From the NCBI GenBank assembly GCA_964016885.1, contig OZ024742.1, positions 88,474,001-88,538,000 on the forward strand: DNA of 64,000 nucleotides, given 5' to 3'. Positions 24,201-59,263 of this stretch are shown piece after piece (the stretch's first letter is position 1; the number at the start of each line of letters is the position of its first letter). Under the pieces are notes generated by a model that was given only the letters and a program-made list of their open reading frames with translations, was not told where the DNA came from and did no database searches. This DNA comes from Eledone cirrhosa. Taxonomy: Eukaryota. Position numbers and translations under genes: made by a program.

Positions 24201-26688
24201 GCGTATGCTACTCGATCCCGAGAAAATGTGTGAAGCTTTTCAGCGACACTTTGCTCAGCTGTTCGGGGGCAGCGGCGGGCCGGATCGAGGGATAGATTTT
24301 AGTGTCTACCTCGACGGACTGCCGCGGCTCTCGGCCACTGAGACGGAGTGTTGCGAAAAGCCGATAACAGCCGCTTAAGAACGGGAGGGAATGACTGGCT
24401 GCACAAGGGGTAAATCGCCTGGTTTGGATGGTCTGCCCTATGAACTTTGCGTACAAATGCCAGACTTGTTCGGAGGCCTCTTGGCGGACGTTTACTGCAA
24501 CTGGCAATAGAACGGGAGAATTCCCGGCTCTGTGAGACGAGGAGCGGTGGCGCTGTTGAGAAAGGATCCGAACAAGAGGGATAACATAAATAATTTTAGG
24601 CCCATAACTCTGCTAAACACAGAGTTCAAGATGTTGGCCAAGGTGCTAGCAAAGAGGTTGGCGCTTGTCGTTGGTGGTCTAGTGGGAGAGGCGCAGACAT
24701 GCGCCATTTCCGACAGATCCATCCACGACAACCTCCACCTCATGCGATACATCGTAGACAGGGTAGCTAGGGAACCTCACACGGATGGGTCTTTGATAAA
24801 TTTAGATCAGTCGAAAGCCTTCGATAGGGTCGACCATCGTTACCTAGCGGCAGACCTGAGGGCGGCTGGCTTTGGGCCCGTCTTCAGAGGCTGGATCACT
24901 GCCATGCACAGCGACATCTGCTCTGTAGTGAGAGTGAACGGTCACTTTTGGAACCGTTCAACATCATGCGCTCGGTCCACCAAGGATGTCCCCTCTCGTC
25001 CCTCTTGTACGTATTGACTCTCGAGTCATTATTGCACAAACTGGAGACCTTGAGGGGGTCCCGCGCGAAATAGGATGCGGAAGATCCGTGTCAGCATATG
25101 AGGACGATGTCTCCCTAGTGGTATCGAACGACAATCACATCGTTGCGATCGGCACTACACTGAGGGATTACGAAGCGGTGACAGGAGCAATGATCAACAA
25201 GGTAAAGTAATTGGGCCTGCAGCTCGGCACCTGGAGAGGCAGGTCCATGCCGTCCAACAGCGTCATCGGGCGCTGGACGGACGGACCGGTTAAATTGCTA
25301 GGGTCTGGTTCGGTCCGGACCTCCAGACGGACAAAACTGGGACGAGGTGACGAGCAGGGTGGCTTCTCTCACCCAGAAATGGGCCGAGAGGAAGCTATCC
25401 CTGAAAGGTCGAGCGGAGCTGGCTAACGCGTACATCGCGTCCGTCATTTACTACCGCCTGACCGTCGTACCTTGTCCTAAACCCCGCCTGACTGCGCTGG
25501 AGCGTTTGCTCTTTCGCTCTTTGTGGAAGGGACGCGCTCCGATGGTCAGGAGCTCCATCTGCTGTCAACACCCGCTACGTGGAGGGCTGGGCATGCCGTG
25601 GCTGATGATGCGCAGACACGCGCTCTGGCTACGACATCTCCACCTCTTCCTCGACGGTGATCAGGTGTGGTCGTCGTTTGCTAGACACGTCTCTCCCCAG
25701 CTCGTCTCCTTGACGGAGCTGCAGTCCTGGGTCAAGCGAAGACCGAGAATGAGCGCTTGGAGACTGGAATGTTTTCAGGCGCTCGCAACCCTCGACCAAT
25801 CGGGCAATGTGATCGGTGGAATCTCCCCCTTGGCGTTCTATAGAGGATTACTGGAGGGGAAGATCGACGACGTACTTGGAGAAACTCTAGGCGTCGACGA
25901 AAATCAACTAGCCAATCTCTTCGGAAGGACTTTCGGGCCGGGGCCTATGGACAACTTCCAGAAATCCCTGGCCTGGCAGTGCTACCGGGGAGCTTTGCCA
26001 GTTCGGGATAAACTCTACAGGCCTGGAGGTGCCGTCAACCGGGCATGTCCGAGATGCGCGCAGGGCGACCAAACCGTCCTGCACGCACTCTTCCAGTGTC
26101 CGAGCATTGTTGACTTGTGGGTTTATGTCGAACACATGCTGTCACGTGTAGGACGGATCCAGCTATCAGCTGAGTCCATCGTGAGGATTGCCTCGCCCTC
26201 TTCCTTTAGACGGGAAGGGCAGGCAGTTTTTATCTATCTGGTGGCTATGGCGAAAAAGATAGTATGGTGGACACGTTTGAAAGGGCTGAAGACGAGCACT
26301 TACCTCTTCGGTGATGCCCTGATTAACTTTTTCAAATTTCACTTGAAAAGCAAAATCAGGGTAGAGAGGGAAGTGCTGTCTTCCCAGCATTTTGTTGAAA
26401 GATGGGTGAGAGAAGCAAGTATGGCCTGAGTGAATGGGCCTACTCTGAGTATGTGTCTGTAAATTAAAGGTGGAAAACTGGGAGAGGTCACTTGCCCAGG
26501 TGGTCAGGGTCACTGTGGTCTTTTAATGGGCTTTCTCCACAAATGTCCCTCGGAAGTCTCCCCCTTATTAGGGAATCTTTCTTTGTTATTTTATTACACT
26601 CAGAAATGCCCATTTGTACCGTCCTGTATTGTCCTGCACTGTCCTTAATGTCTACTATATGTAAACCCTTGTGCTTATTAAAGAAATC
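21210..26688 (+). mobile_element. Tx1 family B copy 1, full-length and decayed (ORF1 21439-23023, ORF2 23063-26462)
   Basis: Starts GGCGACC after (ATT)n. Collinear with 53600-59506. Multiple stops; RT motif reads YEDD; ORF1 core replaced by a minisatellite. Confidence 0.93.
22058..22372. repeat. 21-bp minisatellite (~15 units of GTGGTGGTGGTACTGTTGGTW) inside Tx1-B ORF1
   Basis: Direct reading. Absent from the other family B copies. Confidence 0.93.
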
Positions 26689-26704
26689 ATTATTATTATT
26701 ATTA

Positions 26705-29700
26705 CAGCTGCATTTATCTTGATTTATGTTCAAGTCACAACCAGTGACCTCAACAGACAACAAGGTCCGCCATGTTCAAGAAGAAAATACATACTCACAC
26801 ATGCAGCTTTAGGTGTTTAGACTTGTGATGTACTTATATTGACAGAATGTTCCTTAGTATATGGGCAGTTCCCATTAGTACTATCTTTTGTATTTCTCCT
26901 ATACGCGGGTTTCCTGGGATTTGCGATAAGTAATAATTAGAACCCTTAGGTATCATTCCTAGAGCACCTACAACCACTGGTGTTGTTTTAGTTCTCAATG
27001 TCCAAATTTTTCCAATTTCTATCTACAGGTCCTTATACTTGCTCAATTTTTCAAATGTTTTTGTAGATAAATTCTTGTCTATTGGAACGGACATATCAAT
27101 TAGCAGGCATACCCTCTTTTGAAAGTCCTTCAATATTATATCAGGTCTATTTGCATCTATTTTTCGGTCTGTTTGGATGCTAAAGTTCCACAAGATTGAG
27201 ATGTGATATTTTTGAAGTATGGGAGGTGGTTGATGCTCCCACCAATTCTTTTCATGTGGCAGGTCAAAATGCTTACACATTATCCAATGTATGTATTGTG
27301 CAGCTCTGTCATGCCTGTTTAGGTATTCGGTTGGAGCTATAGGACTGCACATTGAAATTATATGGTCAATGGTCTCTGGTTGTTTTTTGCATACACGGCA
27401 TAATGGGCTGCATCCATTTTTTATTATGTTGGCTTGGTAATTCTTTGTTGGCAGACACTGATCTTGTGCTTATATAATCAGTCCTTTAGTCTCCGATTTC
27501 AGTCCAGAGGATGCCAACCACTGATTGGTTAAAGTTTTGTCAACATCAGGATTGTTAGCTCGTTCTGGGTATTTTCCATACAGAGGCTTTTCTTGCCATT
27601 TCTTAGCCAGTTTCTGTAGCAGTTCTTTCTTTGCAGTTACTTTTACCTGCTTTGCTTTTTCTGTGTTTTCCATTTCAGCAGTAAATGGGACTTCTGAAAT
27701 TTGTAGTCCATTACTGTATCTTTGTGCATTTTTTGTAATGGAATATGATCTTTTGATGCTTTCGTGTTTCAAAACGAGTTTGATCATCCAATAATGTGAT
27801 TCCCTTACATATGTAGATAATCCAATTGTTGCAGTTTTCAACGCAATGTCTAACTGGATTAACCTACGTCCTCCTTCTTTCCTAGGGAGATATATTCTAT
27901 CTGTATCTGCTTTAGTGTGATGCATTCTGTGCATGGGTAAGAATTTTCGAATTTTTGTATCGAGCCTACGGATCTCTGTGCTTGACCAGTTGATGACATT
28001 GTAACCTAGGTTACTACTGGTATGGCAAGCGTGTTTATGGCATCGATCCTATTCCTTGCATTCAATTCCGTTCTTAAGATTGCTCTTACTCTGCGGTAAC
28101 ATTCCTTCCTTATCCTTTCCTTCATTGTCGAGTGCTTGATTCCGTCTCCTTCACAAACACCTAGATATTTGTAAGTTTTTTCTTGATCAAGTTCTCTTAT
28201 CACATTACCACGATCAAGATTAATGTCTGAACTCTTCAGCATCTTTCCTCTGGTGAACGTTGCTTTGGCGCATTTATCCAGTCCAAACTCCATTTTAATG
28301 TCATCACTGAACTGCTCCACAGTGGATCATTGCCCTTGCAATTGTTCATCATTTTTTGCAAATAGTTTCAGGTCATCCATGTAGAACAAGTGATTAATGA
28401 TTTTGTCATAGACTTTATATCCATATTTTGTTTCATTGAGCATTTTACTTAATGGTATAAGTGCGATGCAGAATAAAAGCGGTGATAAAGAGTCACCCTG
28501 AAAAATTCCACAATTAATATTAATTTCTCCAGCTTCCAGTAATTTTGATTCACTATTCAAAATGAGTGTCGTTTTCCATGTCTTCATACTGAATGACAAA
28601 AACCTCCTGACAACGGGGGATATTTTGAAAATCTCTAAACATTTTTCAATCCAACTGTGTGGCAAACTAGCGAATGCTTTTTTATAATCTATCCAAGCAA
28701 TTGATAGATTTTTGTGTCTATTAAGACAATCTTCCAGTATCATTTTGTTAACCAAAACTGATCCTTACAGCCATATGAGCCTCGTTTACACCCTTTCTGC
28801 TCAATGGGAAATAGGTCATTTGTTATCAGGTGGTCATATGTGTATTCAGTTAGGACTGATGTTAAAATGTTATACATTGTGGTCAAGCAAGTTATCGGTC
28901 TGTAATTTTTGGGATTGTTTGTCTCATCATTCTTCGGAAGCAGGAACGTAATGCCGATAACTAGCCATGATGGTATCTTTTCTGGCTCCTTAATTATTTC
29001 ATTGTAAAGTTGGGCTAACAGCTCATGAGACTCTGTGAAGGCATTTATCCAAAAGTTTTGTATTTTGTCTTTTCCTGGGGATTTCCATTTGCTGGTTTTT
29101 CTTAGAGCCAAGCGCAACTGTTCAAATGTTATATTTTCCCATATTTGTTCTTCAAGGTGAGCTGTATCTTTCATTTGTCTGTCTATCCATGGGGTATGTA
29201 TGTTATGAACTTCTTCTTCGGCCCAGATCTTTTCCCAGAATTCTTGCACTTCCTCCTTGGGTGGTATTGATTTAGCAGTTATTGTTGACTTACCAATTTA
29301 TCTGTAGAAGTTTCTTTGGTTGTTTTTGAACATATTATTGTCCTTATAGAATCTAGACCGTTTTTCAAAGCGCCTTATACGAGCAGCTTTGGGCGACACT
29401 TTTTGCTTGATTATTTCTATCAGCATGTCTATGTCACATGTTGATTTTATACTGTACTTTCTTTTCAATTTTCTAAGTTTAGTTTGTTTAACATGTTCAC
29501 CTATTTATAGTTTGTTAAAATTTCTCTGTCAGATCGGAGAAGGTTTATTTGGCGATTGATGTTCTCTTGCCAAGTAGATTTTTTATGGGAATTCCTTTGT
29601 TTTTTCATCTTCACTCCACATAAGTGAGTGGTGAATTTAGCCGATGCATAATAAAGATGATTTAAATCAGTAATGTTTAGTTTGTTTGTGATGATAATGT

Positions 29701-30640
29701 TTTTGAGAATTATGTTAGTCTTGTGTATTATCTTTTGGTTCTGTTTGGAGTTCTGGATCTTAGGGAGGATGTCTCGTTGCCCCATGTCAGATTCTTTCAT
29801 TTTCATCCATTCGATCATAATTTCATCCTTCAAGTTGGCAAGTTCATTCTCATTCATTTCTTTATCATTTACGATGTCATTATTTTCATTTGGAGTTTCA
29901 TCTTGAGTATGCACTCCCTCCACTTTTTCGATCCTTTCTTTAATTTGTTCTGTTGTCAGTGATTCCGCCCCAACCCTGGGATTCGAAGTGTTACAATTTA
30001 CCTCGTTTTCACTGACACATGTTTCATTTTCCCTTCGCTGACTTTGTGCTACTAGCTTGATCTGATCAATTTCTATATCAGTTAGTAACTTTTTTTTTAC
30101 AATATTTCTTCGTATATTGGCTAATTGTTACTGTCAATAGAGCCTCTATTTTCGGGATGTTTCTTTTTCCAGTTGATATATGTCTGTTCTGTATTCGATG
30201 TATTTGAGGGGTAGTACATGGCAGTGTAGAAAGCCTCAAGGACTTCTTTATTATCTTCCCTTGACCATTTTTCTCTCTTTTTCTTTGGATTTCTTGGTGG
30301 TGAGCATGGAGGGCCAACAGTAGGAGTATTCCGGTTATGGGAGGTCTCCAGCTCCGAAGTGATGGGAAGGTTTGAACCATTAGCTGATTTTTCGACCCCA
30401 GTCTGGTTCCTCTCTGAGGGACGCGGCCCTTTTTTACCCAGGTGACGGCCGATCCGGTATGAGATTTTATCATTCGACATTTACTTTATTTTGTCGCGTT
30501 TTATCCTTATCCGCCAAGGGGTAAACATTTCGTGTTACCACTTCTAGAACGAATGTCAACCAAGATTAGAGGGGTCGTTCTCGCCTAGAGACACGGCTAT
30601 TCCCCACCGGCCGCCATCCCGGTATTTCTTGGTCACGGGG
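26705..30640 (-). mobile_element. R4/Dong-clade element family D2, full-length; ORF ~30480-26834 disrupted
   Basis: Myb-like REKWSREDNKEVLEAFY; RT WKSPGKD, NYRPITCL, GIFQGDSLSP, FYMDD; RLE RHD, NRPD, KLSKYKDL. (TAA)n tail. Confidence 0.93.
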
Positions 30641-30741
30641 TTTTCTTTTTTGTTGTTTTTTTAAATTGTTATTATCATGAGTGGTTCCTTAATGTGAGCA
30701 TTGCTTGACTTAAGAATGAAATTATTAATAATTGTCACCAC

Positions 30742-30778
30742 TCCAGGCACAAGGCCAGCAATTACCGAGTGCATTACA
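30742..30778 (-). mobile_element. SINE 3' fragment
   Basis: Reverse complement of GTAATGCACTCGGTAATTGCTGGCCTTGTGCCT. Confidence 0.55.
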
Positions 30779-31114
30779 ATAATATAATATACTTTTTGCT
30801 GAAGTTGCCAGTTATTGTTGTTGGCTATGTCGCTGGTGTTGCTGGGGCTTTTTATATTGTTGGTGAGGAAGGAAGGGGGGGGGGGCAGCAGTGCCATAGT
30901 TGTTGACGTTTCACCGGTGGCCAGTTCACTAATTCAATCTATTTATATCTTTGCTAGCCTCTCCCTTGTCTAGTGATACCGCCACCTTCCCCTTTCTTAA
31001 GTTAACAGGGGAATAGTGGTGGTTACAATGAAGGAGTGGTAGCGGCGGTGATGGGATAGTGGTAGCAATGATGGATGGAGTGGTGGCGGCGGTGGCGTTG
31101 TCGTTACTGAGTTT

Positions 31115-31256
31115 TGTTGAATGGACTAGTTTTTTTTTATATGTAGTATCTATGCGTTTGTGTCGCGTATGTTTAATATATGTGTTGAATAGACTAGTTT
31201 TGTTTGATCTGTAGTATCTATGCGTTTGTGTCACGTATGTTTAATATATGTGTTGA
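31115..31256. repeat. ~68-bp tandem duplication
   Basis: TGTTGAATrGACTAGTTTT...TGTAGTATCTATGCGTTTGTGTCrCGTATGTTTAATATATG occurs twice. Confidence 0.85.
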
Positions 31257-31719
31257 CATATTCCCGTAATATTGGAATTAAACATTTTGTTAAAACTTGA
31301 GACAATAATAATAGTAATTATTATTATGATGCTGGGATTGGTGGTGGTGGTGGTGAAATTGCCGTTATCTGGCTGTTATATTTAGTGTACACAGCGGAGT
31401 GATGGGGTAGGTGGTGTATCAAGTTTCTGGTGTTGGTGAAATTGCTGTTATTTGGCTGTTCTATATAGTATAGACAGAGGGGGTTTTCTTCCATTTATAA
31501 CCATATTCTTTTTTGAATATAAAATATATAATACAAAATTGAATATTTAAGCGATATAACAATATATTATGGATCCGAAATTTTATGAGACTTGATTCGG
31601 TGGTTTATGCATCATTTGTACTTGGAATTGTTATTTCACAATTGATTTAAATATGTTAAAAATCAAAAACTTACGGGAGCGATTTCATGACCTTCTCCCA
31701 CCACGTGCGTCTTCTTCCG

Positions 31720-31760
<41 letters not shown>

Positions 31761-31761
<1 letters not shown>

Positions 31762-32523
31762 GTTATTCCTTGAATCTCAGTCATTGATGTTGGTTAACTG
31801 GAAAGTCCGTTGGAATGAATATCAAGCCACTACCTGCAGCCTCAGATATTCAGGACGTATCGGAGGGTTCTTGCTGTTCCAAGCAAGCATGCCTTTTGAA
31901 GCGTTCCAAAAAGCGTGAAGGGCCGATTTTCTTTAACCATCCCTGGAAACTTTTGGAGATAGTCCCCAGTGCGCCTATGACAATCGGGATCACTTTGACT
32001 TCATGGCAGTTCCAAATACTTTTCACCTCCCACTTTAGGTCCTGGTATCGGTTAAGTTTCTCCCTCTCCTTCTCTTGCACTCTCGTGTCGAAAGGGCAGG
32101 CCACATCCACAATCAGACACGATCTTTTTTCTTTGTCAACAACCACCAGGTCAGGTCTATTGTGTTCCAGTTTTTTGTCCGTCCGTATCCTAAAATCCCA
32201 CAGCACCTTCACCTGATTGTTCTCCATCACCGCCTCAGGCCTATGCTCATACCATTTCTCAGAATGTGGTAAATTGTTTACTTTGCACACGTGCCAGTGG
32301 ATCACCCTGCCCATCACATCGTGTCTCCAGCCCTTATAGTGGGTCTGGGCTAGGTGTTTACACTCGGACACAATGTGAGCCACAGTCTCCTCTCTCTGTC
32401 CACAAATCCTGCACAGTGGGCTAGCCTCCTCCTTGTAAATATGGTGCTTCAACCACTCCGTTTTGAGGGCCTGCTCCTGCGCAGCCATTAGCATTCCTTC
32501 TGTAGCCTTTTTGAGGTCTCCTC
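31761..32523 (-). mobile_element. R4/Dong D1, 5'-truncated copy (CCHC + RLE only)
   Basis: Near-identical to 32560-33323. ORF 31850-32494. Confidence 0.95.
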
Positions 32524-32559
32524 TATTATTATTTTTATTATTATTATTATTATTGTTAT

Positions 32560-35500
32560 TGTTATTCCTTGAATCTCAGTCATTGATATTGGTTAACTGG
32601 AAAGTCCGTTGGATTGAATATCAAGCCACTACCTGCAGCCTCAGATATTCAGGACGTATCGGAGGGTTCTTGCTGTTCCAAGCAAGCATGCCTTTTGAAG
32701 CGTTCCAAAAAGCGTGAAGGGGCCGATTTTCTTTAACCATCCCTGGAAACTTTTGGAGATAGTCCCCAGTGCGCCTATGACAATCGGGATCACTTTGACT
32801 TCATGGCAGTTCCAAATCCTTTTCACCTCCCACTTTAGGTCCTGGTATCGGTTAATTTTCTCCCTCTCCTTCTCTTGCACTCTCGTGTCGAACGGGCAGG
32901 CCACATCCACAATCAGGCACGATCTTTTTTCTTTGTCCACAACCACCAGGTCAGGTCTATTGTGTTCCAGTTTTTTGTCCGTCTGTATCCTAAAATCCCA
33001 CAGCACCTTCACCTGATTGTTCTCCATCACCGCCTCTGGCCTATGCTCATACCATTTCTCAGAATGTGGTAGATTGTTTACTTTGCACAGGTGCCAGTGG
33101 ATCACCCTGCCCATCACATCGTGTCTCCAGCCCTTATAGTGGGTCTGGGCTAGGTGTTTACACTCGGACACAATGTGAGCCACAGTCTCCTCTCTCTCTC
33201 CACAGATCCTGCACAGTGGGCTGGCCTCCTCCTTGTAGATATGGTGCTTCAACCACTTCGTTTTGAGGGCCTGCTCCTGCGCAGCCATTAGCATTCCTTC
33301 TGTAGCCTTTTTGAGGTCTCCTCTTCTCAACCAGTTCCATGTCTGTGGATCTCTAAATTCAGTTTTCTCAAAGAAGGTACTATGAAGGGGTTTTCCCTTA
33401 AGGCTGCTCTTCCTCCTTGATGTTATTTCCTCCCTGGACATCCCCTGGCCTACTGTCCCCTCCTTTAGTACAGCTCTGAGCATTGGCTCCTTACTATAGG
33501 TCACGTATTTGTATAGGTTGTTTTTCTCCATCTGAACACAGTCCTCTATGCTGATAAGACCTCTTCCACCCTCAGATCTCCTTAGGTAGAGTCTATCGAC
33601 ATCACCCCTCTTGTGGAACATGTTGTAGATAGTCAATAGCTTCCTAGTCTTCCTATCCATTTCTTTCTGTTCAGCAACATTCCATCTCAGAATTCCCGCA
33701 CTGTACCTAATAATAGACACAGCTCGGGAATTTACTGCGCTTATGGCATTTCTGCTGTTCAGACGTGACCTCAATACGCTCCTTACTCTCCGAATGTATT
33801 CAGTTCTTAACAATTCCTTCATTTTTTTGTTCTTTATGCCATCAGCCTCCAGAACGCCCAAATACTTGTATCCTTCCTCAGAGTCAATTTCCTTTATCAT
33901 CTCACCTGTTGGTATCTGGATCCCGTTACTTTTGCTCAACCTACCCCTCTTCATCACAATGACTCCACATTCACCAATACCAAACTGCATACATATATCA
34001 CTGCTGAAAATACGGACAGTGTCAACAAGCACATCCAACTCCTTCTCACTTTTCCCGAAGAGCTTAAGATCGTCCATGAAGAGGAGGTGATTGATGGTAA
34101 GCTCTCCCCTTCCCAACTTGTATCCTGCTCTCACTTTTCGCAGCATAATGGTCAAGGGCATCAGGGCAAGGACAAACAACAGAGGGGACAGGCTATCTCC
34201 CTGGAAGATAACTCTCTTGATCTTCACGCTTCCCAAGGATACTCCAGTTGATGTCAACTCTGTCTCCCAGGACCCCATACTCCTGCCTAGCAACTGTCTG
34301 ATGTTATCCGCCACCCTGAAGATCTCCAGGCTTTTGGTGATCCAGGAATGAGGCACCATGTCAAATGCCTTTCTGTAGTCTATCCATCCCATGGCAAGAT
34401 CAGTGTGTCTCCTCCTGCAATTCCCCATTACCATCTTATCAATAAGCAACTGGTCCTTTGTACCACGTGACTTCTTTCGGCATCCTTTCTGTTCGTCCGG
34501 TAACAAGTTGTTTGTGTGGAGGTGATGGTAGATTTCCTCAGACACAATGCTCGTCAACAGTTTCCACATTACGGGCAGACATGTGATAGGTCTATAGTTG
34601 GTAGCATCATTACCCTTGATTCGGTCTTTCATTATCAGAACTGTGGTACCTTTTGTCAACCACTCTGGCACCTCACCCGACACCAAGCAGTCATTGAACA
34701 TGGCCGTCAGCTTCGGGTGGAGGGATGTTAGATGTTTAATCCAATACCCCTGCACACCATCTGGGCCTGGTGATTTCCAGTTGGTTAGTTTTTTGGCTTG
34801 CCCCTTAAGAGTTTCAACTGTGATACTCAAATCAGTCTGTTGCTGTGCCTGCTCACCGATCTCCCTCTGTACTGTCTCAATCCACTCTGCCTGGGCATTG
34901 TGTCTAACATCCTGCTCCCATATTCCTCTCCAGAATGTTTTAGTTTGCTCCGCCCCAGGGATCAAGTCGTTGCCTCTTTCTTTGCCCTCAAGCTGTCCAA
35001 ACAGCATCTTCTTGTTGTTGTCGAACATGCGGTTCTGTTTATACTGACTGACTCTGTTCTCGTATCGCCTGATTTTTGCACTCTTTGCTACAATGCGTTG
35101 CTTCAATTCCTCTATGATAATATTTAGCTTTTTACTCCTAGTTTTGTATTTTATTTCCAGTCTATTTTTAGTGCCTATGTTTTTTAGTGTCCCATTCAGT
35201 AGTGACTCAAGCTTTCCTATGTCATTTCTCATTTCCCCGATTTGCCCACTCAGTCGCTTCTTCCACCACGGCTCTGCTCTTTCTTGTCTGTTGTTTCCTC
35301 TCGCTTTTATACCAAGTAGTTTCCTCACCGTATTTGCTGTTGCTCTGAGGATATTGTTGCACTCGTGAAGGCTCCTCGCCTCAAGGTATGGGATGACTTT
35401 GTTTACCTTAGCTGTTGTTTCTTTTAACTTTTTCCTGTCTACAAATCTTAGGTTCATAGGTCTCCCACTATCATTGTTCAATTCATCTACCACTAAATTT

Positions 35501-36175
35501 AGGATGTCAACCGAATCTTGTCCTAGCCCGTCAGCATTCATCTCCTCAGTGGCCGTATCTCTGTTCCAGGTATTATTTATCTCAGTACTCAGATCATTGT
35601 CTGCTTCGGGTGGTTCCGCCGTTCTCAGGACCTCCTCACCTTCATTTCCCACCGGCTCGCTTGTCTGGCATACTACACCCGCCATCTCCAAGCCATTCTC
35701 TCTGCTCAGTTCCTCCAGTTCCAGCTCGCTTATCCACCCATTAGTTCTTATTACCCGAGCCTGCCCGGCCAATTTTTGTTCATCTAATTTAAATAAACCA
35801 ATCTCGTTCCAGATGTTATGCATCCGTCTCCTGTAGCCCCTCTCCTTGGGGTTACTTTTCAGGTAGCATTGCATAACAGTTCTATTCAATCCTTTCGTCC
35901 AGTTGGTTCTGGCCCCTTTCCTTCTTCTCCTTCCTCCAACATCAGCAGTATTTGGTTGACAGTCAGGTTCCTGCTGCTGAGCCAGGGGGCACCTGTTGGG
36001 TGAGAGTCTGTCACATGACGTTCTAGTCTCCATTTCACCGTTATTCGAACTGTTTATGTTCGATATTTAAACACTCTTATCGAGGATTGGCGAATGTATG
36101 TTTACATAGTCATCTGTGGATCCGCCATCCCACTTGGCCCTTGTGTGGCATTATCACCACGCTGTATACGAACAC
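32560..36175 (-). mobile_element. R4/Dong D1, full-length and potentially competent
   Basis: ~140-nt 5' UTR, single intact ORF, ~80-nt 3' UTR, (TAA)n on both sides. Confidence 0.96.
32641..36033 (-). CDS. R4/Dong polyprotein: Myb-like N-terminus, reverse transcriptase, CCHC finger, restriction-like endonuclease (1130 aa)
   Basis: NWTKGLNRTVMQCY; WKSPGPD, NYRPITCL, DYRKAFD, IFQGDSLSP, LFMDD, YKYLG; CRICGEREETVAHIVSEC; RHD, RPD, DVACP, KINRYQDL. Confidence 0.96.
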   Translation of the reverse strand: METRTSCDRLSPNRCPLAQQQEPDCQPNTADVGGRRRRKGARTNWTKGLNRTVMQCYLKSNPKERGYRRRMHNIWNEIGLFKLDEQKLAGQARVIRTNGWISELELEELSRENGLEMAGVVCQTSEPVGNEGEEVLRTAEPPEADNDLSTEINNTWNRDTATEEMNADGLGQDSVDILNLVVDELNNDSGRPMNLRFVDRKKLKETTAKVNKVIPYLEARSLHECNNILRATANTVRKLLGIKARGNNRQERAEPWWKKRLSGQIGEMRNDIGKLESLLNGTLKNIGTKNRLEIKYKTRSKKLNIIIEELKQRIVAKSAKIRRYENRVSQYKQNRMFDNNKKMLFGQLEGKERGNDLIPGAEQTKTFWRGIWEQDVRHNAQAEWIETVQREIGEQAQQQTDLSITVETLKGQAKKLTNWKSPGPDGVQGYWIKHLTSLHPKLTAMFNDCLVSGEVPEWLTKGTTVLIMKDRIKGNDATNYRPITCLPVMWKLLTSIVSEEIYHHLHTNNLLPDEQKGCRKKSRGTKDQLLIDKMVMGNCRRRHTDLAMGWIDYRKAFDMVPHSWITKSLEIFRVADNIRQLLGRSMGSWETELTSTGVSLGSVKIKRVIFQGDSLSPLLFVLALMPLTIMLRKVRAGYKLGRGELTINHLLFMDDLKLFGKSEKELDVLVDTVRIFSSDICMQFGIGECGVIVMKRGRLSKSNGIQIPTGEMIKEIDSEEGYKYLGVLEADGIKNKKMKELLRTEYIRRVRSVLRSRLNSRNAISAVNSRAVSIIRYSAGILRWNVAEQKEMDRKTRKLLTIYNMFHKRGDVDRLYLRRSEGGRGLISIEDCVQMEKNNLYKYVTYSKEPMLRAVLKEGTVGQGMSREEITSRRKSSLKGKPLHSTFFEKTEFRDPQTWNWLRRGDLKKATEGMLMAAQEQALKTKWLKHHIYKEEASPLCRICGEREETVAHIVSECKHLAQTHYKGWRHDVMGRVIHWHLCKVNNLPHSEKWYEHRPEAVMENNQVKVLWDFRIQTDKKLEHNRPDLVVVDKEKRSCLIVDVACPFDTRVQEKEREKINRYQDLKWEVKRIWNCHEVKVIPIVIGALGTISKSFQGWLKKIGPFTLFGTLQKACLLGTARTLRYVLNI

Positions 36176-36199
36176 AATTATTATTATTATTATTGTTAT

Positions 36200-36415
36200 T
36201 GTTATTCCTTGAATCTCAGTCATTGATGTTGGTTAACTGGAAAGTCCGTTGGATTGAATATCAAGCCACTACCTGCAGCCTCAGATATTCAGGACGTATC
36301 GGAGGGTTCTTGCTGTTCCAAGCAAGCATGCCTTTTGAAGCGTTCCAAAAAGCGTGAAGGGGCCGATTTTCTTTAACCTTCCCTGGAAACTTTTGGAGAT
36401 AGTCCCCAGTGCGCC

Positions 36416-36418
<3 letters not shown>
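36200..36418 (-). mobile_element. R4/Dong D1, very short 5'-truncated copy
   Basis: Near-identical to 32560-32778. Confidence 0.93.
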
Positions 36419-36452
<34 letters not shown>

Positions 36453-36982
36453 GGAGTCTCAATCATTGATGCCATTTAACTGCAAAGTCTTTTAAATGAA
36501 CATCATGCCGCTGCGTGCAGCCTCAGATATTCAGGACGTATCTGGAGGGTTCTTGCTTTTCCCAGCAAGCATGTCTTTTGAATTGTTCTAAAAAAGGAGG
36601 CTGGACTAATTCTATTAAACCATCCTTGAAATCTCTTCGATATAGTACATAGTTCTTCTATAACAATCGGGACGACCTCGATCTCATGACAGTCCCACAT
36701 CATTTTTAATTCGCACTTTAAATTCTGGTATCGCTTAATTTTTCGTTCTCCTTTCCTTACATTTTGTGTCAAAGGGGAAAGCCACATCTACAATCAGGCA
36801 TGATTTTGTCTTGTCAAAAACCACCAGGTCAGGCCTATTGTGTTCTAATTTCTTGTCTGTCTGTATCCTGAAATCCCATAGCACCTTTAATTAATCGGTT
36901 TCCATCACCGACTCTGGCTTATGCTCATACCACTTCTCCGAATGTGGTAAATTATTTAATTTTCTTAAATGGCAATGAATCA
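36453..36982 (-). mobile_element. Older D1-related 5'-truncated copy
   Basis: KIKRYQNLKCELK...VVPIVI...QKTCLLGKAR. Diverged version of the same 3' UTR. Confidence 0.85.
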
Positions 36983-37019
36983 GTGGTCAGTGAATCCTTG
37001 TCAATATTATTATTATTCC

Positions 37020-38110
37020 TTTCTATTTTATTTCATATTCCTGTCGGATATGAGCCAGAGACCTAAGGCTCGTATATATTAGATAGAGAGAAACCTTTTT
37101 AAATGGTGAGTGGGTGGAATCAACACAACTTTTGAACCGCTTTGATTGTTGTTTTCCCAGGGATGTTTTCAAAAAGTTGACTTATGTTTCTTGATCATTT
37201 ACATGGCACTCATAACAACAATGATGATTTTGGTTTTTATTTGCCACATCCTAAATGATTCATTTTCAATATCCTTGTATTGAGATACTTTCTCAAATTC
37301 TTCTGCTGGGATGTTTCTATCAGTAGGCATTGTCATATCAATTGACAGGCATATATTTTGTACTAGGTCTTTTGCGATGATACCAGGCCTGTTAGCATTT
37401 ATTTGCTTGTCAGTATGTATCACGTAATCCCATAGGGTGGTAACATTTTCTCCATTATTAACTGGATGGGATGGCTTTCATACCATTTCTTAATGAGCGG
37501 GATATCATAGTGACGGCACATGAGCCTGTGCAGTTATTGGTGAACACGATTATACATGGTTTTCTATTCTCTAGGAGCAAGGACTGAGTAACCAGCAACA
37601 ATGTGGTCAATGCTCCCAAGTTTGTCATAGCGGAATCTGCAATTTCTGTAGGCTTCATTTTGCAAGATATTTACTTCATAGTTTTGGGTAAGGAGATTCT
37701 GATCTTGAGATCTTGAGATTCTGATCTTGAGCCGCTTGGATAAATCCTTCTCTTGCGTCATTAAAACCAGTGCTATGCAGTCACAGATTTGTATCAGCTT
37801 ATCCAGCTCGTTTGGGGTATTGTCTATGCAAGCCTTTTTTTACCACCACAGTCTCTATATTTCCTTCAATCTTTACACTTTGCCTTGAAATGGTTAGTCT
37901 TTATAGCCGTATAATTCTGTTTTGCACCCATTTGCTCATGCGGAAGGATGTTTTAATAAGAACTTTGTTAGAATTGTCGGTAAGGATGGATGTAAATATT
38001 CTGTACATAGTTTTAGCTTTACCAGTTTTGTATTTCGCCCAATTTATGCCTAACGTGATCCAGTTTAGGAATCTTTTCGAGGTTTGTACCGACATCAGAG
38101 AAGCATACAT
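37020..38110 (-). mobile_element. Decayed R4/Dong-clade fragment, third family
   Basis: IHTDKQINANRPGII...IDMTMPTDRNI...EKVSQYKDIE; CRF...SIDHIVAG. Confidence 0.75.
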
Positions 38111-39437
38111 TTAAGTGGTGGTGTGATGTGAGATTATATCAAGTCAGCAGTTTAGTACTTTATCATGCCCGGAGACCTTCAACTTATGAGCTTTATACAG
38201 AGCTTAAGTTAGTTCCATTCCTGTACTTAAAACCCAGAAAATCTTCCTTCTGTTCGCCCTATCCATTCAGTTTTCTCGTTAAATACCTTCTCAAAATGTC
38301 TCTATTTCTTTCATATCAGCTAGGTGTTTTATATTTCACTAACTCTCTGGAGAATTTCTTAGTTTCAATTTTAAATAAATTATTGCTGTAAAGGTGTTGC
38401 TCTTTTCATATATATCTAAGCGTTGTGACTTTACCTAAACATTTTTGCATATCCTCTATTTTGCTCTTTCCACTTGTTGCACAGCATTTGTTGCTGCTGA
38501 TGCAAAACTTTTGACAACGAGTTGACTGACATAGCATGTTTAATGGGCAAACATTTTGCTGGGTACCCTAGTAGTTCCAAGGAGAACTGTTTACTATATG
38601 TGCCCCACCATGATATTGGTCCCACTTTTATCTAAACATCTATTACGTTTGGTGCTCACAGTAACCAGCGTCTCGATATGAACTGGCATCTCCTAAAACA
38701 TTGTCAGAAATTGTTTTATCTCCCGTGATTTTGGTTCGTATCTCTCAGATTTCTTGAATTCTTTGTCACGAACATTATAGTCAGTGGGACAAACCGTATC
38801 CCGAAACAAACATCGATTCTTACCTTTGTTGATCATGGCAATAACCGATTTACGATGTTCAAATTCATGGTCACATTGGAACATAGAGCTCCATAGATTC
38901 TTAACGTGGTTATTTTCTACATCCTCTGTGATCCCGTACCACTGGCTTGCTTTTTCAAGGCTGTATAACAGACAATGAAGGATTAACTTTAGAAAGTACG
39001 TTAGTTTGCAGCTTGGCAGCAGGAGAAGAATATCCATGCTGATGAACAGCGTCATGGGACGTTGGGAGGCCGGACAAATTATGTTAATTAGGATCCGGTT
39101 TGGGCTGGAATACCGTGTGGATAGGAAGTCGGATGAGGTAGCGAGCAGGGTGATAACTCCCAACCAGAAAAGACATGGGAGTATGCTATATTTGAAGTTT
39201 CAGGCAGAGGTGGTAAACGCATAAATTGACATCGTTGTATATTATCGATTGCCGAACGTGTCTTGCCCCTTTTTGTGTCTCGCCAAATTGAACGTCTTCT
39301 CCTTCATGCCGTGGCTGAAGATGTGCAGGTATGTTCTTAGACTATGGTTTCTAAATTAATGTTTGTATTTCTGGTTGCTTTGATTATGTGTTGAAATTTG
39401 AAAGCCATTGACCTCTGCATTTATGTTTATATGTTAC

Positions 39438-39521
39438 TGTATTTCTTGGTATCGTTTTAGTATTTCTTGGTATGGTTTTAGTATTTCTTGGTATCGTTTT
39501 AGTATTTCTTGGTATCGTTTT
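39438..39521. repeat. 21-bp tandem repeat x4 (GTATTTCTTGGTATCGTTTTA)
   Basis: Direct reading. Confidence 0.9.
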
Positions 39522-40465
39522 TTATTTAAAATATAGCGTGTTCACCTATCCTCTGTTTTCTTCATAGATACATATTTGTATATGCGGACGATATCGCCGT
39601 AGTTATGTGGGAACTTCGAATACTTTGATGTTATCAGGAGTACGAGCTGGTAGGAAAAATGAAAATAACTAAGAAAGGTTAGTGGACCTGCAGGATGATG
39701 CTTGGTGAGCTGCGTCCATATCACTCGTGGGACGTTGGACGTTGGACGTAGGGGCGGGTTTATTTGCTGATGTGTGGTATGGGTGATATCTCGATGTTGA
39801 CAATGACGGGGCTGAAGTGATGAGGTGGGTAACTAGTTACAAGTAGATATCTATCCCTGAAATATGTATCACAGTTGGTGAACGTCTACATTGTTTTTGT
39901 CCTCTATTACCGTCTAACCTTTGTAACGTGATCCATTTCTCGTGTGATCGGACATTGTCGTTTGTACTTTATTTTCTGTGGAAGAGACGCGTTCCGTTTC
40001 GTTAGCTGATCGATTTGCTTTCAACACACTTGTCTAAAACCTAGCCATGAGTTAAATAATGATGACCAGATAAGCTGTGTAGCTTCGATTTTTCCGCTGA
40101 GTCCCATGAACTGATACGTTCGGCGTGTTCCAGACGCACCTATATCCATTTCGTCTCTATAACAGGATAGAAGACTTTAAAGCAAAGACCATGATGGGGC
40201 TCTTGGCCTCTGGAAGGTCCGCAAATGCACTTAGTGAAATCTCCATATTGGCGTCCTATATAGGGCTGTATGTAGGGTTACGTAACTCTCCATCGAGGCG
40301 TAGGTGCGGTTTATTGACATACGGTGTCTGTTCGGAGTTTTAAGCCTGGAGGAGACCATCCCTCTCCTGGGTTGAATATAGTACATTCCTTCCAGGGAAA
40401 GATAGAAAACTAAGAGAGAGGAAAGTAGTAAGAGATATAGAGGATGAACCAACACCAGAACTAGA

Positions 40466-55805: not shown

Positions 55806-55844
55806 GGTAAGTGGTCTTTCCCATCTTTTCCACTCCTTTTCAAC

Positions 55845-58800
55845 ATGACCTCACTCAGAATAGGCAGCATAAATGCGCGTGGCTTGGGGTCGTCATGGAA
55901 GCAGGGCCACCTGCTCAACGACCTCAGGTCACTAAACATAGATGTAGTGGCCATCAGCGAGACCAGAATCTCCGAAGCACAGGCTTTCGCACCGATCTTC
56001 GGCGGCTACGATGTGTACGCATCTCCCAGCCGTCCGGGATCGGGGGGAGGAGTTGCTGTGCTTTTTCGGAGTGGTTTGGATCTTGCCATACGAGCCATCT
56101 TCCTGGACCCAGAAGGTAAGTTGGTGGGGCTGGACGTGACCAGCGGAGACGGGCAAGCTTTCAGGTTAGTGGCCGTCTATGCCCCGACAGGAGCAGGGCG
56201 GCCTGATTTCTTCCGGCGTCTGGAGACCTTTCTTGGAACGTCCCGCTCTTTAGTGTTAGTGGGCGACTGGAACGGGATCTTAGATGCACGCTGGGATTGT
56301 GTGGGATTAGTGGATAGGGAAGGAGGGTGCAAGAGTCTCACCAACCTGCTCAGACGTTTTGAACTGTCTGACAGGTACCGAATGGATTTCCCGAATGTAC
56401 CAATGTGGACTTGGACAAATCGCATAGGGTCATCCAGATCATATCTAGATAGAGTATTTTGTAGGGAAATAGATAGGTCTAGCATAGGCTGTTCACAATT
56501 CAAGATATTCAGCTACACGGACCACAAATTCGTGATCTGTGTGCTTGAATTAGATAGGCTTCATAGACGAGGACCCGGCTACTGGAAGCTAAACGCATCC
56601 TTACCAGCGCGCAAGGGCTACAGAGACCGGATTAGCGAACTAGTTAAGCGGGCTTTGACGGGGGCCATCGTCAACAACAAGTGGTGGTTTGCTCTGAAAA
56701 GAGCAATTAGAATAGAGTCCATTAGGTTTAGTAAGACTTTAGCAATAGAGAAAAATAGAGCAGAGGGAGAATTAGTTATAAAATTAGATGAGGCGCTTAG
56801 CAAAGGCATCGCGACCGACGTACTTGCGGCGAAATTGGCCCTTGACCAATTCTTCAATGCAAAGCACGAAGGCTGCGTTGTCAGAGCAAGGGTGCGTGCT
56901 CTCAGACACGAGGGGACGAAAGCCGTTCAATGGGCCCGAGTGGCGGAGGCGCGTCGTGGCAACAAAGCCACGATCCGGTCTTTGGTGGACCACGACGGGC
57001 GCAAGCTACTCGATCCCGGGCAAATGTGTGAAGCTTTTCTGCGACACTTCGCTCAACTGTTCGGGGGCAGTGGCGGGCCGGATCGAGGGATGGACTTTAG
57101 TGTCTACCTCGACGGACTGCCGCGGCTTTCGTCCACTGAGGCGGAGTGTTGCGAAAAGCCGATAACAACCGCTGAAGTACGGCATGCAATGACTAGTTGC
57201 ACAAGGGGTACATCGCCTGGTTTGGATGGTCTGCCCTATGAACTTTACGTACAAATGCCAAACTTGTTCGGAGGCCTCTTGGCGGACGTCTACTGCAACT
57301 GGCAACAGAACGGGAGAATTCCCAGCTCTGTGAGCCGAGGAGCGGTGGCGCTGCTGAGAAAGGATCCGAACAAGGGGGATAACATAGATAATTTTAGGCC
57401 CATAACTCTGCTAAACACAGAGTTCAAGATTTTGGCCAAGGTGCTAGCAAAGAGGTTGGCGCTTGTCGTTGATGGTCTGGTGGGAGAGGCACAGACATGC
57501 GCCATTCCCGACAGATCCATCCACGACAACCTCCACCTCATGCGATACATCGTAGAGAGGGTAGCTAGGGAACCTGGCACGGGTGGGTATTTGATCAATT
57601 TAGATCAGTCGAAAGCCTTCGATAGGGTCGACCATCGTTACCTAGCGGCAGTCCTGAGGGCGGCTGGCTTTGGGCCCGTCTTCAGAGGCTGGATCGCTGC
57701 CATGCACAGCGACATCTGCTCTGTAGTGAGAGTGAACGGTCACCTTTCGGAACCGTTCAACATCATGCGCTCGGTCCGCCAAGGATGTCCCCTCTCGTCC
57801 CTATTGTACGTATTGACTCTCGAGCCATTACTGCACAAACTGGAGACGTTGAGGGGGGTCCCGCGCGAACTAGGATGCGGAAAATCCGTGTCAGCATATG
57901 CCGACGATGTCACCGTAGTGGTGTCGAACGCCAAACACATCGAGGCGATCGGCACTACACTAAGAGAATACGAAGCGGTGACAGGAGCAATGATCAACCA
58001 GGAAAAGTCAGTAGGCCTGCAGCTCGGCACCTGGAGAGGCAGGTCCATGCCGTCCAACAACGTCGTCGGGCGCTGGACGGACGGACCGGTTAAATTGCTA
58101 GGGGTCTGGTTCGGTCCAGACCTCCAGACGGACAAAAACTGGGACGAGGTGACGAGCAGGGTGGCTTCTCTCACCCAGAAATGGGCCGAGAGGAAGCTAT
58201 CTCTGAAAGGTCGAGCGGAGGTGGCGAATGCGTACATCGCATCCGTCATCTACTACCGCCTGACCGTCGTACCTTGTCCTAAGCCCCACCTGACTGCGCT
58301 GGAGCGTTTGCTCTTTCGCTTCTTGTGGAAGGGACGCGCTCCGATGGTCAGGCGGTCCATCTGCTGTCAACACCCGCTACGTGGAGGGCTGGGCATGCCG
58401 TGGCTGATGATGCGCAGACACGCGCTCAGGCTACGACATCTCCACCTCTTCCTCGACGGTGATCAGGTGTGGTCGCCGTTTGCAAGACACGTTTTTCCCC
58501 AGCTCGTCTCCTTGACGGAGCTGCAGTCCTGGGTCAAGCGAAGACCGAGAGGGAGCGCTTGGAGACTGGAATGTCTTCAGGCGCTCACAGCCCTCGACCA
58601 ATCGGGCAATGTGATCGGTGGAAACTCCACCTTGGCGTTCTATAGGGGATTAGTGGAGGGGAAGAGCGACGACGTACTTGGAGAAACTCTAGGCGTCGAC
58701 GAAAATCAACTAGCCAATCTCTTCGGAAGGACTTTCGGGCCGGGGCCTATGGACAACTTCCAGAAATCCCTTGCCTGGCAGTGCTACCGAGGAGCTTTGC

Positions 58801-59263
58801 CAGTTCGGGATAAACTCTACAGGCATGGAGGTGCCGTCAGCCGGGCATGTCCGAGTTGCGCGCAGGGCGACGAAACCGTCCTGCACGCACTCGTCCAGTG
58901 TCCGAGCATTGCTGACTTGTGGGTTTATGTCGAACACCTGCTGTCACGTGTAGAACGGATCCAGCTATCAACTGAGTCCATCGTGAGGATTGCCCCGCCC
59001 CCTTCCTTTAGCCTGGAAGGGCAGGCAGTTTTTATCTGTCTGGTGGCCATGGCGAACGAGATAGTATGGTGGACACGTTTGAAAGACTGAAGACGAGCAC
59101 TTACCTCTTCGGTGATGCCCTGATTAACTTTTTCAAATTTCATTTGAAAAGGAGAATCAGGGTAGAGAGGGAAGTGCTCTCTTCCCAGCATTTTGTTGAA
59201 AGATGGGTGAGAGAAGCAAGTATGGCCCGAATGAATGGGCCTTCTCTGAGTATGTGTCTGTAA
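55845..59263 (+). CDS. Tx1-B ORF2: apurinic-like endonuclease, reverse transcriptase, CCHC finger; 1081 aa open, then one frameshift near 59087
   Basis: SINARGL, SET, GDWN, LDR, TDH, GYWKLN; NFRPITLLN, LDQSKAFD, VRQGCPLS, AYADD; CPSC...ETVLHALVQC. The C-terminus continues in ORF 59066-59263. Confidence 0.95.

Follow-up and report, generated by a model that had tools for sequence, protein, structure and literature searches.

A candidate exonuclease-blocking RNA fold and a putatively remodelled start-codon pseudoknot in Dong-like non-LTR elements of Eledone cirrhosa

The window, as the whole 64,000-nucleotide stretch of Eledone cirrhosa DNA analysed here (contig OZ024742.1) is called, holds an array of Dong-like elements on its minus strand, including members of two families, D1 and D2. 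In a domain search, the D1 protein matched RVT_1 only and no APE domain; its endonuclease and CCHC motifs were read by eye, and its best matches among solved structures are R2 proteins. A (TAA)n tract lies upstream of D1 in 29 of 30 loci, and insertion in (TAA)n is as for Dong, which has been linked with TAA repeats (PMC3774820, partial text). Domain layout, motifs and TAA insertion thus suggest that D1 is an RLE non-LTR element of the Dong/R4 clade, a placement made by features and set apart from any RT tree with named R4/Dong sequences. The genome search for D1 scored the best 40 of 1445 first-look candidates, at ~100% identity, and the subfamily sample comprises 62 copies (52 D1a, 7 D1b, and 3 D1c). 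At 36110, this D1 copy has an A, where 29 other top copies have a G.

The features of D1 that are needed below are as follows:

32641..36066, minus strand: D1 reading frame of 1141 codons, with RT, C-terminal CCHC and restriction-like endonuclease motifs
36045..36063, minus strand: local hairpin UCGAAC/GUUCGA in the first codons, which beats an enclosing stem proposed earlier
36074..36084, minus strand: CUC/GAG hairpin, then GAGUG, conserved just 5' of the start codon
36088..36133, minus strand: D1a H-type pseudoknot, with S1 at 36133-36130/36119-36116 and S2 at 36127-36120/36095-36088
36145..36160, minus strand: hairpin into which the decayed first pseudoknot (PK1) of module Y, described below, has refolded (probability 0.995)
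36176..36200, minus strand: (TAA)n tract and 5'-truncation junction of the D1 copy, ~0.93-1.25 kb short of the family 5' end

The frame opens at an ATA (36066-36064), and its first ATG lies at 36033-36031 on the minus strand. The ATA of D1a and D1b corresponds to an ATG in D1c and older relatives. It is present in 52/52 D1a copies, and the 11 codons to the next ATG are still open, so that initiation at a non-AUG codon is possible in D1a.

Further elements surround this array. The short D2 copies L288 and L295 and the D1 copy L029 each lie within the TAA tract that trails a D1 3' end, and the window's own array shows the same nesting. On the opposite strand lies an element (55806-59090, +) whose domains are an APE-type endonuclease, RT and zf-RVT, and pieces resembling it occur near 15-26 kb and 48-53 kb. 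Elsewhere, R4-like elements were found at 23 loci in bacterial and archaeal genome records (L202-L224), most likely as eukaryotic contamination of the assemblies.

The initial annotation placed a candidate conserved, pseudoknotted RNA at 36050-36175, as a 5'-UTR structure at the element's 5' end. Among 30 fetched D1 copies, 28 continue upstream past the junction seen in the window; the window's D1 copy is 5'-truncated. Full-length copies begin with (TAA)n, then GGGAAGAAG, and their leader has a median length of ~1083 nt. Because copies continue upstream and the leader measures ~1.08 kb, the flagged stretch makes up the final 140 nt of the leader, by the start codon, i.e., ~1 kb inside the leader, which removes its placement at the element's 5' end. 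A 24-mer from the 5' part of the full leader occurs 1412 times in the genome; among 90 of its sites taken in genome order, 64 lead to D1, 20 to D2, and 6 could be assigned to neither. In many full-length copies, the TAA tract is separated from GGGAAGAAG by extended (GAA)n repeats (L005, L033, L034, L040, L051, L068, L073, and L086).

The proposal that this stretch is a 5'-release ribozyme loses its support together with the placement. Cutting at the D1 region would cluster 5' junctions there, and none are clustered: counted as distinct loci among the matches listed, the window's junction has 6 loci over 15 nt and the 31 nt preceding the hairpin have 13, compared with 9 in a 15-nt control window inside the ORF. 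No 5'-end hot spot is thus seen at the D1 region, the junction counts being at background. The earlier remark that a canonical HDV fold could not be fitted was borne out by a strict HDV descriptor (uncalibrated on a known HDV ribozyme), which found 0 cores in the D1 and D2 leaders, and 0 in 35 related leaders against 1 in 350 shuffles. Loose HDV matches (2 in the D1 and 5 in the D2 leader) need a P3 mismatch and lie away from the flagged knot. The suggested Rfam search of positions 26000-40000 and six related loci returned no family, including twister, near its gathering score.

All motifs on which the proposed structure was built are in place on the minus strand (TGTTCG 36174-36169, CGAACA 36062-36057, GTGGG..TCCAC 36133-36116, TTCGCCA 36094-36088, TAAACA 36104-36099, TGTTTA 36073-36068, and CTC/GAG 36084-36074), and the structured-RNA reading holds for one knot and one hairpin. 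The loop pairing forms an H-type pseudoknot in D1a, with S1 GUGG/CCAC, an L1 of 2 nt, S2 UGGCGGAU/AUUCGCCA (8 bp), an L2 of 0, and an L3 of 20 nt; only 3/300 dinucleotide shuffles of the region are equally stable. The 4-bp S1 stem is kept in at least 50 of 52 D1a copies. In a nested model, S1 has a probability of 0.03, and the nested fold of the whole flagged region is ordinary (z -0.34, no better than shuffles). The small CTC/GAG hairpin is intact in 60/62 D1 copies, and its YUC/GAG form precedes the AUG in many other families.

The two remaining stems and the supposed equivalence with D2 have to be given up. The enclosing stem TGTTCG/CGAACA is broken (TGTCCG) in 23 of the 52 D1a copies and is outcompeted by the local TCGAAC/GTTCGA hairpin, with nested-model probabilities of 0.0 and 0.92, respectively; its CGAACA arm corresponds to codons 2-3 of the older reading frame. 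As for the TAAACA/TGTTTA stem, TAAACA is found in 36/62 D1 copies and in 0/10 of the older D1b and D1c copies. GATGGCGG, the motif thought to be common with D2, does not occur in D1b, D1c or older relatives, and its D2 copy belongs to another module. GGGATGGCGG is not conserved in the D1 lineage; it arises only at the last D1 step, so that the match to D2 does not reflect common descent. By eye, a short ORF running across the D1 hairpin could be dismissed, since D1b and D1c contain stops. A candidate third pseudoknot was observed over the start codon of the D1 line, at 36083-36050 on the minus strand and in L193 (UCGAUA/UAUCGA, and UGUUUA with a downstream UAAACA); none was seen in other families.

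The surviving knot can be placed within a larger module, Y, which lies just before the AUG and consists of two small H-type pseudoknots (PK1 and PK2), whose linkers are A-rich, and then a small hairpin and GAGUG. Module Y was found in related elements from metagenomes, and the pattern of its first knot matches 67 times in the genome and 0 times in the control, several of the matches being older relatives of D1. Across 32 aligned rows, 83.8% of cells are paired and 31 changes are two-sided, compared with 14.6 after shuffling (reached by 0/500 shuffles), although these covariation figures are not probabilities, given the relatedness of the rows and the many decayed single copies among them. In slid controls, pairing falls to 34-53%. 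The columns of PK1 are fixed by the search pattern; those of PK2 lie outside the selection pattern, and PK2 alone gives 72.1% paired cells and 21 two-sided changes against 11.3 shuffled (0/500). The alignment (A2) omits L125, L145, D1 and D2, as well as five of the 30 pattern loci (L174, L177, L182, L191, and L197) that were chance-like, chimeric or redundant. GAGUG-like ends are located 0-7 nt before the ATG in 16/33 rows, and Y keeps a near-fixed distance from the AUG across proteins that are ~45% alike. Homologous copies thus covary at a fixed place before the AUG, and no enrichment of 5' ends occurs at Y.

Group-2 elements, a set of metagenome loci (L114-L141), gave no Y match. Between module X, which is described below, and the AUG, they carry repeated hairpins starting with GCTAAGGGAG in place of module Y, a word that we take to resemble the 3' end of the antigenomic HDV ribozyme.

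In both active families, Y is partly lost: PK1 is decayed, and D1a and D1b are without the old ATG. In the D1 lineage, an 18-nt unit over the 5' half of PK2 is duplicated. Along the series D1c, D1b, D1a, a new hairpin takes the old PK2 partner, with 6-8 possible base pairs; the 5' half of the D1a pseudoknot comes from the 18-nt duplicate, and its partner is the old PK2 partner. The D1a knot is thus best described, as far as comparison of the copies can tell, as a recent remodelling of module Y, and the D1 stretch by itself makes a modest case, i.e., a recently rebuilt knot of a conserved start-codon module. D2 retains a PK2 of its own:

30496..30519, minus strand: PK2 of module Y in D2, with the stem fully changed to CCUU/AAGG and the loop GCG pairing with CGC (seen by eye, outside the counted alignment)

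This PK2 ends 16 nt before the ATG at 30480.

The D1a pseudoknot could also be a neutral by-product of the 18-nt duplication, in a leader whose decayed Y has become irrelevant. A copy of the 5' half of PK2 brings its complementarity to the partner with it, D1a has lost PK1 as well as the old PK2 stem and the old ATG, and at no point within D1 did the partner strand change in concert. Against these points, pairing rose rather than decayed along D1c, D1b and D1a, the 4-bp stem is nearly invariant among D1a copies, and few shuffles match the knot (the counts being those given above). A neutral origin is thus held to be rather unlikely, though a serious contender, and remodelling of a retained module is the preferred reading of the D1 stretch.

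The long leader that the window's D1 copy has lost is retained by D2:

31010..31720 (end approximate), minus strand: 5' part of the long leader of D2, 79-85% alike to the part lost from the window's D1

The D1 and D2 proteins are only 34-47% alike, yet the first ~700 nt of their leaders are 79-85% alike; the common part is probably a swapped promoter. The leaders contain 12 (D1a) and 13 (D2) upstream ATGs, with which plain scanning would presumably be poor.

D2 contains a second, separate arrangement of helices upstream of Y, a double pseudoknot termed module X:

30590..30640, minus strand: module X in D2, with helix a at 30640-30636/30606-30602 and helix b at 30635-30632/30597-30594 (3/4 pairs)
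30622-30619/30610-30607, minus strand: helix c of module X in D2, closing an 8-nt loop (30618-30611), of which the central 3 nt are paired to 30592-30590

The D2 copy of GATGGCGG is the 8-nt loop of this module and not part of Y. The elements of X follow the order a, b, an optional hairpin, an A-rich linker, c, a loop with d, c', a', b' and d'. X is also present in metagenome group 1 (L091-L093, L095, and L102), group 2, L107, L155, and two older families of this genome (L172 and L226). When each of the 7 families is represented by a single row, 94 of 97 cognate positions are paired, a score inflated by registers that were hand-set after viewing the sequences; 14 of 15 pairs show two-sided change, and permuted 3' strands give a mean of 69.6, with 0/20000 reaching 94. 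The count omits L176 and L189 (decayed or same-family rows) and L123 (same group as L114). Both the covariation and the helix order are direct observations. In D2, helix b carries an A-C mismatch. Four of the 7 families, D2 among them, allow the last two blocks to exchange partners, and the swapped pairing in D2 fits what we take to be the loop pairing implied by the initial annotation.

A first, loose descriptor of X gave many chance matches, and a tightened version was used to scan 1.36 Mb. It gave scores of 15-17 to 14 loci, which belong to three groups (groups 1 and 2 and L172), with all other matches at 14.5 or below; it missed D2, L155 and L226. No X core was found in the D1a leader, and no convincing match of X or Y in 1 viral-contig locus and 23 genome-contig loci. 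The optional hairpin (P2) is present in group 2 and L155, while five families, including D2, have a short unpaired or otherwise-paired linker in its place. By eye, in several copies without this hairpin (L091, L093, L095, L226, and 30633-30583 of the window, minus strand), the linker after b can pair over 5-6 bp with a strand past d'. Group 1 also shows a possible second X-like fold upstream of the first (L091 171-235, L095 423-487, and L102), with one two-sided change in L102 and an atypical loop.

Module X coincides with the 5' ends of many elements. In D2, TAA junctions at 27 loci fall within 15 nt upstream of X, compared with 2 in an ORF control and 3 in an A-rich control window that has the same microhomology as the X site. 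Of these junctions, 22 join no more than 5 nt from helix a, and 14 read AAT+AAAA+CCC(C)G, which implies 2-4 element-derived A's. The pile-up just before X is a genomic proxy for 5' ends, in which overlap with TAA blurs distances of 2-4 nt. In the other families, X lies within ~0-5 nt of (TAA)n in 10 group-2 loci, L155 and L172, so that it starts 12 elements of three families besides D2; it is internal in group 1 and in long D2. The earlier idea of a structured 5'-end determinant for tandem-array elements thus looks right for X of D2, and not for D1.

Such a pile-up might reflect repeated processing or the spread of one short copy. The 20 X-start D2 copies that were fetched (of 27) are interspersed with 14 long copies in older and younger strata, and the tree shows 8 label changes, a number as low in 24/500 shuffles; one young clade accounts for 7 of the 20. 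Supported branches force only 1 origin; repeated processing is therefore suggested, and a single short master is possible. Apart from this, five 5' ends looked tRNA-like by eye (L106, L111, L119, L138, and L146), and a scan of 8 loci with ARAGORN, these five included, returned no tRNA gene.

The architecture of X resembles that of the flaviviral class 1 exonuclease-resistant RNAs (xrRNAs), with the same order of Pk1, P1, optional P2, P3, the Pk2 loop, P3', Pk1', P1' and Pk2'. The halt at class 1 xrRNAs is placed four nucleotides upstream of PK1 (PMC12081666, partial text), a spacing that the commonest D2 junction, at 2-4 nt, would match as far as the genomic proxy can tell. Subclass 1b is described as having a 3-bp Pk2 with a U before and purines after it, a P1 of 3-5 bp, a P3 of 4-5 bp and a variable P2 (PMC7527734, partial text); X likewise has a 3-bp Pk2 with a U before and a purine after, a P1 and P3 of 4 bp, and a variable P2 (see also PMC8374639, partial text). 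X differs from the xrRNAs in occurring in a retrotransposon 5' leader rather than a viral 3' UTR, and from class 1 in the absence of P2 from five families. According to the same partial descriptions, it departs from subclass 1b in having 5-6 A-rich nt before P3 (none in 1b), a Pk1 of 4-6 bp (2-3 bp in 1b), a ring path of ~17-19 nt (15-16 nt in 1b), and a 3-3-2 loop (3-3-3 in 1b). As X falls outside subclass 1b in its P2-P3 linker, Pk1 length and L3 split, it may be said to work like a class 1 xrRNA, and membership is not claimed. A base triple, a threaded ring and resistance to Xrn1 are predicted for X by this analogy.

The chief rival for X is an undescribed self-cleaving ribozyme, perhaps rewired from the HDV-like one of Bombyx Dong and cutting 2-4 nt before helix a. 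That ribozyme is proven, and it self-cleaves after TAA repeats (PMC3774820, partial text). X marks 5' ends at the same site, where it would have the same place and job. X also shares with the HDV-like ribozymes of R2, R4 and Bombyx Dong the element clade, a double pseudoknot and the 8-nt loop, whose hairpin is directly followed by the partner of the 5'-most helix; it may even overlap with the published drawing of the R4/Dong ribozyme. The resemblance ends at the catalytic core: X, like the D1 region, is without P2-P3 adjacency, a C-containing L3, P1.1 and a catalytic J4/2, for which there is no room as a strand, and few of its bases are fixed, namely a purine and the U of the loop. Group 2, L155 and L226 do not fit the helix order of HDV. 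Helix a is mostly without an initial G, and the D2 junctions keep extra A's and are not at a G1, unlike HDV-like cleavage. The Rfam and strict HDV searches described above likewise yielded no ribozyme among the sequences covered. In a comparison by hand, twister, pistol, hammerhead, hatchet and glmS ribozymes were rejected against what we take to be the features of each; for twister, X presumably lacks the second in-loop pairing and the conserved bases. Being a small structured RNA at a non-LTR 5' end is what X has in common with the T-variant twister of Perere-3 (PMC8501958, partial text). Self-cleavage of X is accordingly judged unlikely, and a mechanical block to exonucleases is preferred.

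Of the two functions proposed for the D1 stretch, ribozyme or translation element, the second fits best, since the stretch descends from a covarying pseudoknot module before the AUG, and Y is likely, from its sequence and position, to be a translation or RNP element. Its role might be in internal or cap-independent initiation, with binding of an element protein as the main alternative. The best functional match is the R2Bm 5' RNA, which lies at the ORF start, has a conserved pseudoknot, regulates integration, and has been proposed for translation initiation and protein control (PMC12203849, partial text). Like it, Y and the D1 region place a pseudoknot where the ORF of an RLE-type element starts; Y differs in that its two small H-type knots, whose linkers are rich in A, lie upstream of the AUG, and the likeness is put forward at the level of function. 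The pseudoknot of R2Tg lies in the 3' UTR and not in the 5' UTR. If Y followed the R2Bm example fully, it would bind the element's own protein and so control second-strand cleavage, without taking part in translation. The R2Bm precedent and the R2 proteins as the closest solved relatives of D1 speak for this possibility; the near-fixed distance of Y from the AUG in such divergent proteins speaks against it. A pure protein site is considered quite unlikely, and assistance to the ribosome or to a protein at the start codon is favoured.

Finally, GATGGCGG could be a YY1-type DNA promoter site and the pile-up before X of D2 a capped transcription start, as D2 has GATGGCGGC ~25 nt after the junction, which presumably resembles the YY1 core; this is very improbable, given that the motif is missing from 10/10 copies of the older D1b and D1c subfamilies, D1 shows no pile-up, and the other six of the 7 X families mark 5' ends or covary without the motif.

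The explanation that combines these observations, and that seems about equally apt to stand or fall, is that Y is a remodelled start-codon knot aiding the ribosome or a protein, while the separate module X, present in D2 and not found in D1, sets 5' ends by blocking an exonuclease. A read-through or leader-driven transcript would be opened upstream by decapping, debranching or an endonucleolytic cut. Xrn1/Xrn2 would then trim it to ~4 nt before helix a and stall on the ring-like fold of X; such a stall would leave X at the RNA's 5' end, and new copies would thus begin at X. The protected, uncapped RNA would be translated with the help of Y and then reverse transcribed. D1 apparently lost X and might rely on the long common leader, probably a promoter. 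It would have rebuilt only the second knot of Y, and this Y-derived H-type pseudoknot in the flagged stretch would help the ribosome or an element protein engage the RNA. The extension to Dong-type elements in several animal lineages, in which an xrRNA-like X would stall Xrn1/Xrn2 to make the 5' end and Y would act at the AUG, is put forward a little more tentatively.

X is the more striking object than the D1 stretch. According to a 2021 review, xrRNAs had been characterised only in viruses, and their existence in eukaryotic genomes was posed as a question (PMC8374639, section 9, partial text). A full-text search, with subscription papers, Repbase and supplements outside its scope, found no literature linking xrRNA-like folds to non-LTR elements. 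At 50 nt, X offers a directly testable candidate for a non-viral RNA that blocks exonucleases, and it shows both covariation and a footprint of 5' ends in the genome. In retrotransposon-based gene insertion, the stability of the 5' fold is thought to limit efficiency (PMC11331408, partial text), and X could serve there as a compact 5' protector. If X cleaves instead of blocking, it would represent a new ribozyme class. If the exonuclease block is true, a 5' ribozyme can be replaced in non-LTR elements by a purely mechanical barrier, which would be a third way to define the 5' end of an element, besides a ribozyme or a promoter.
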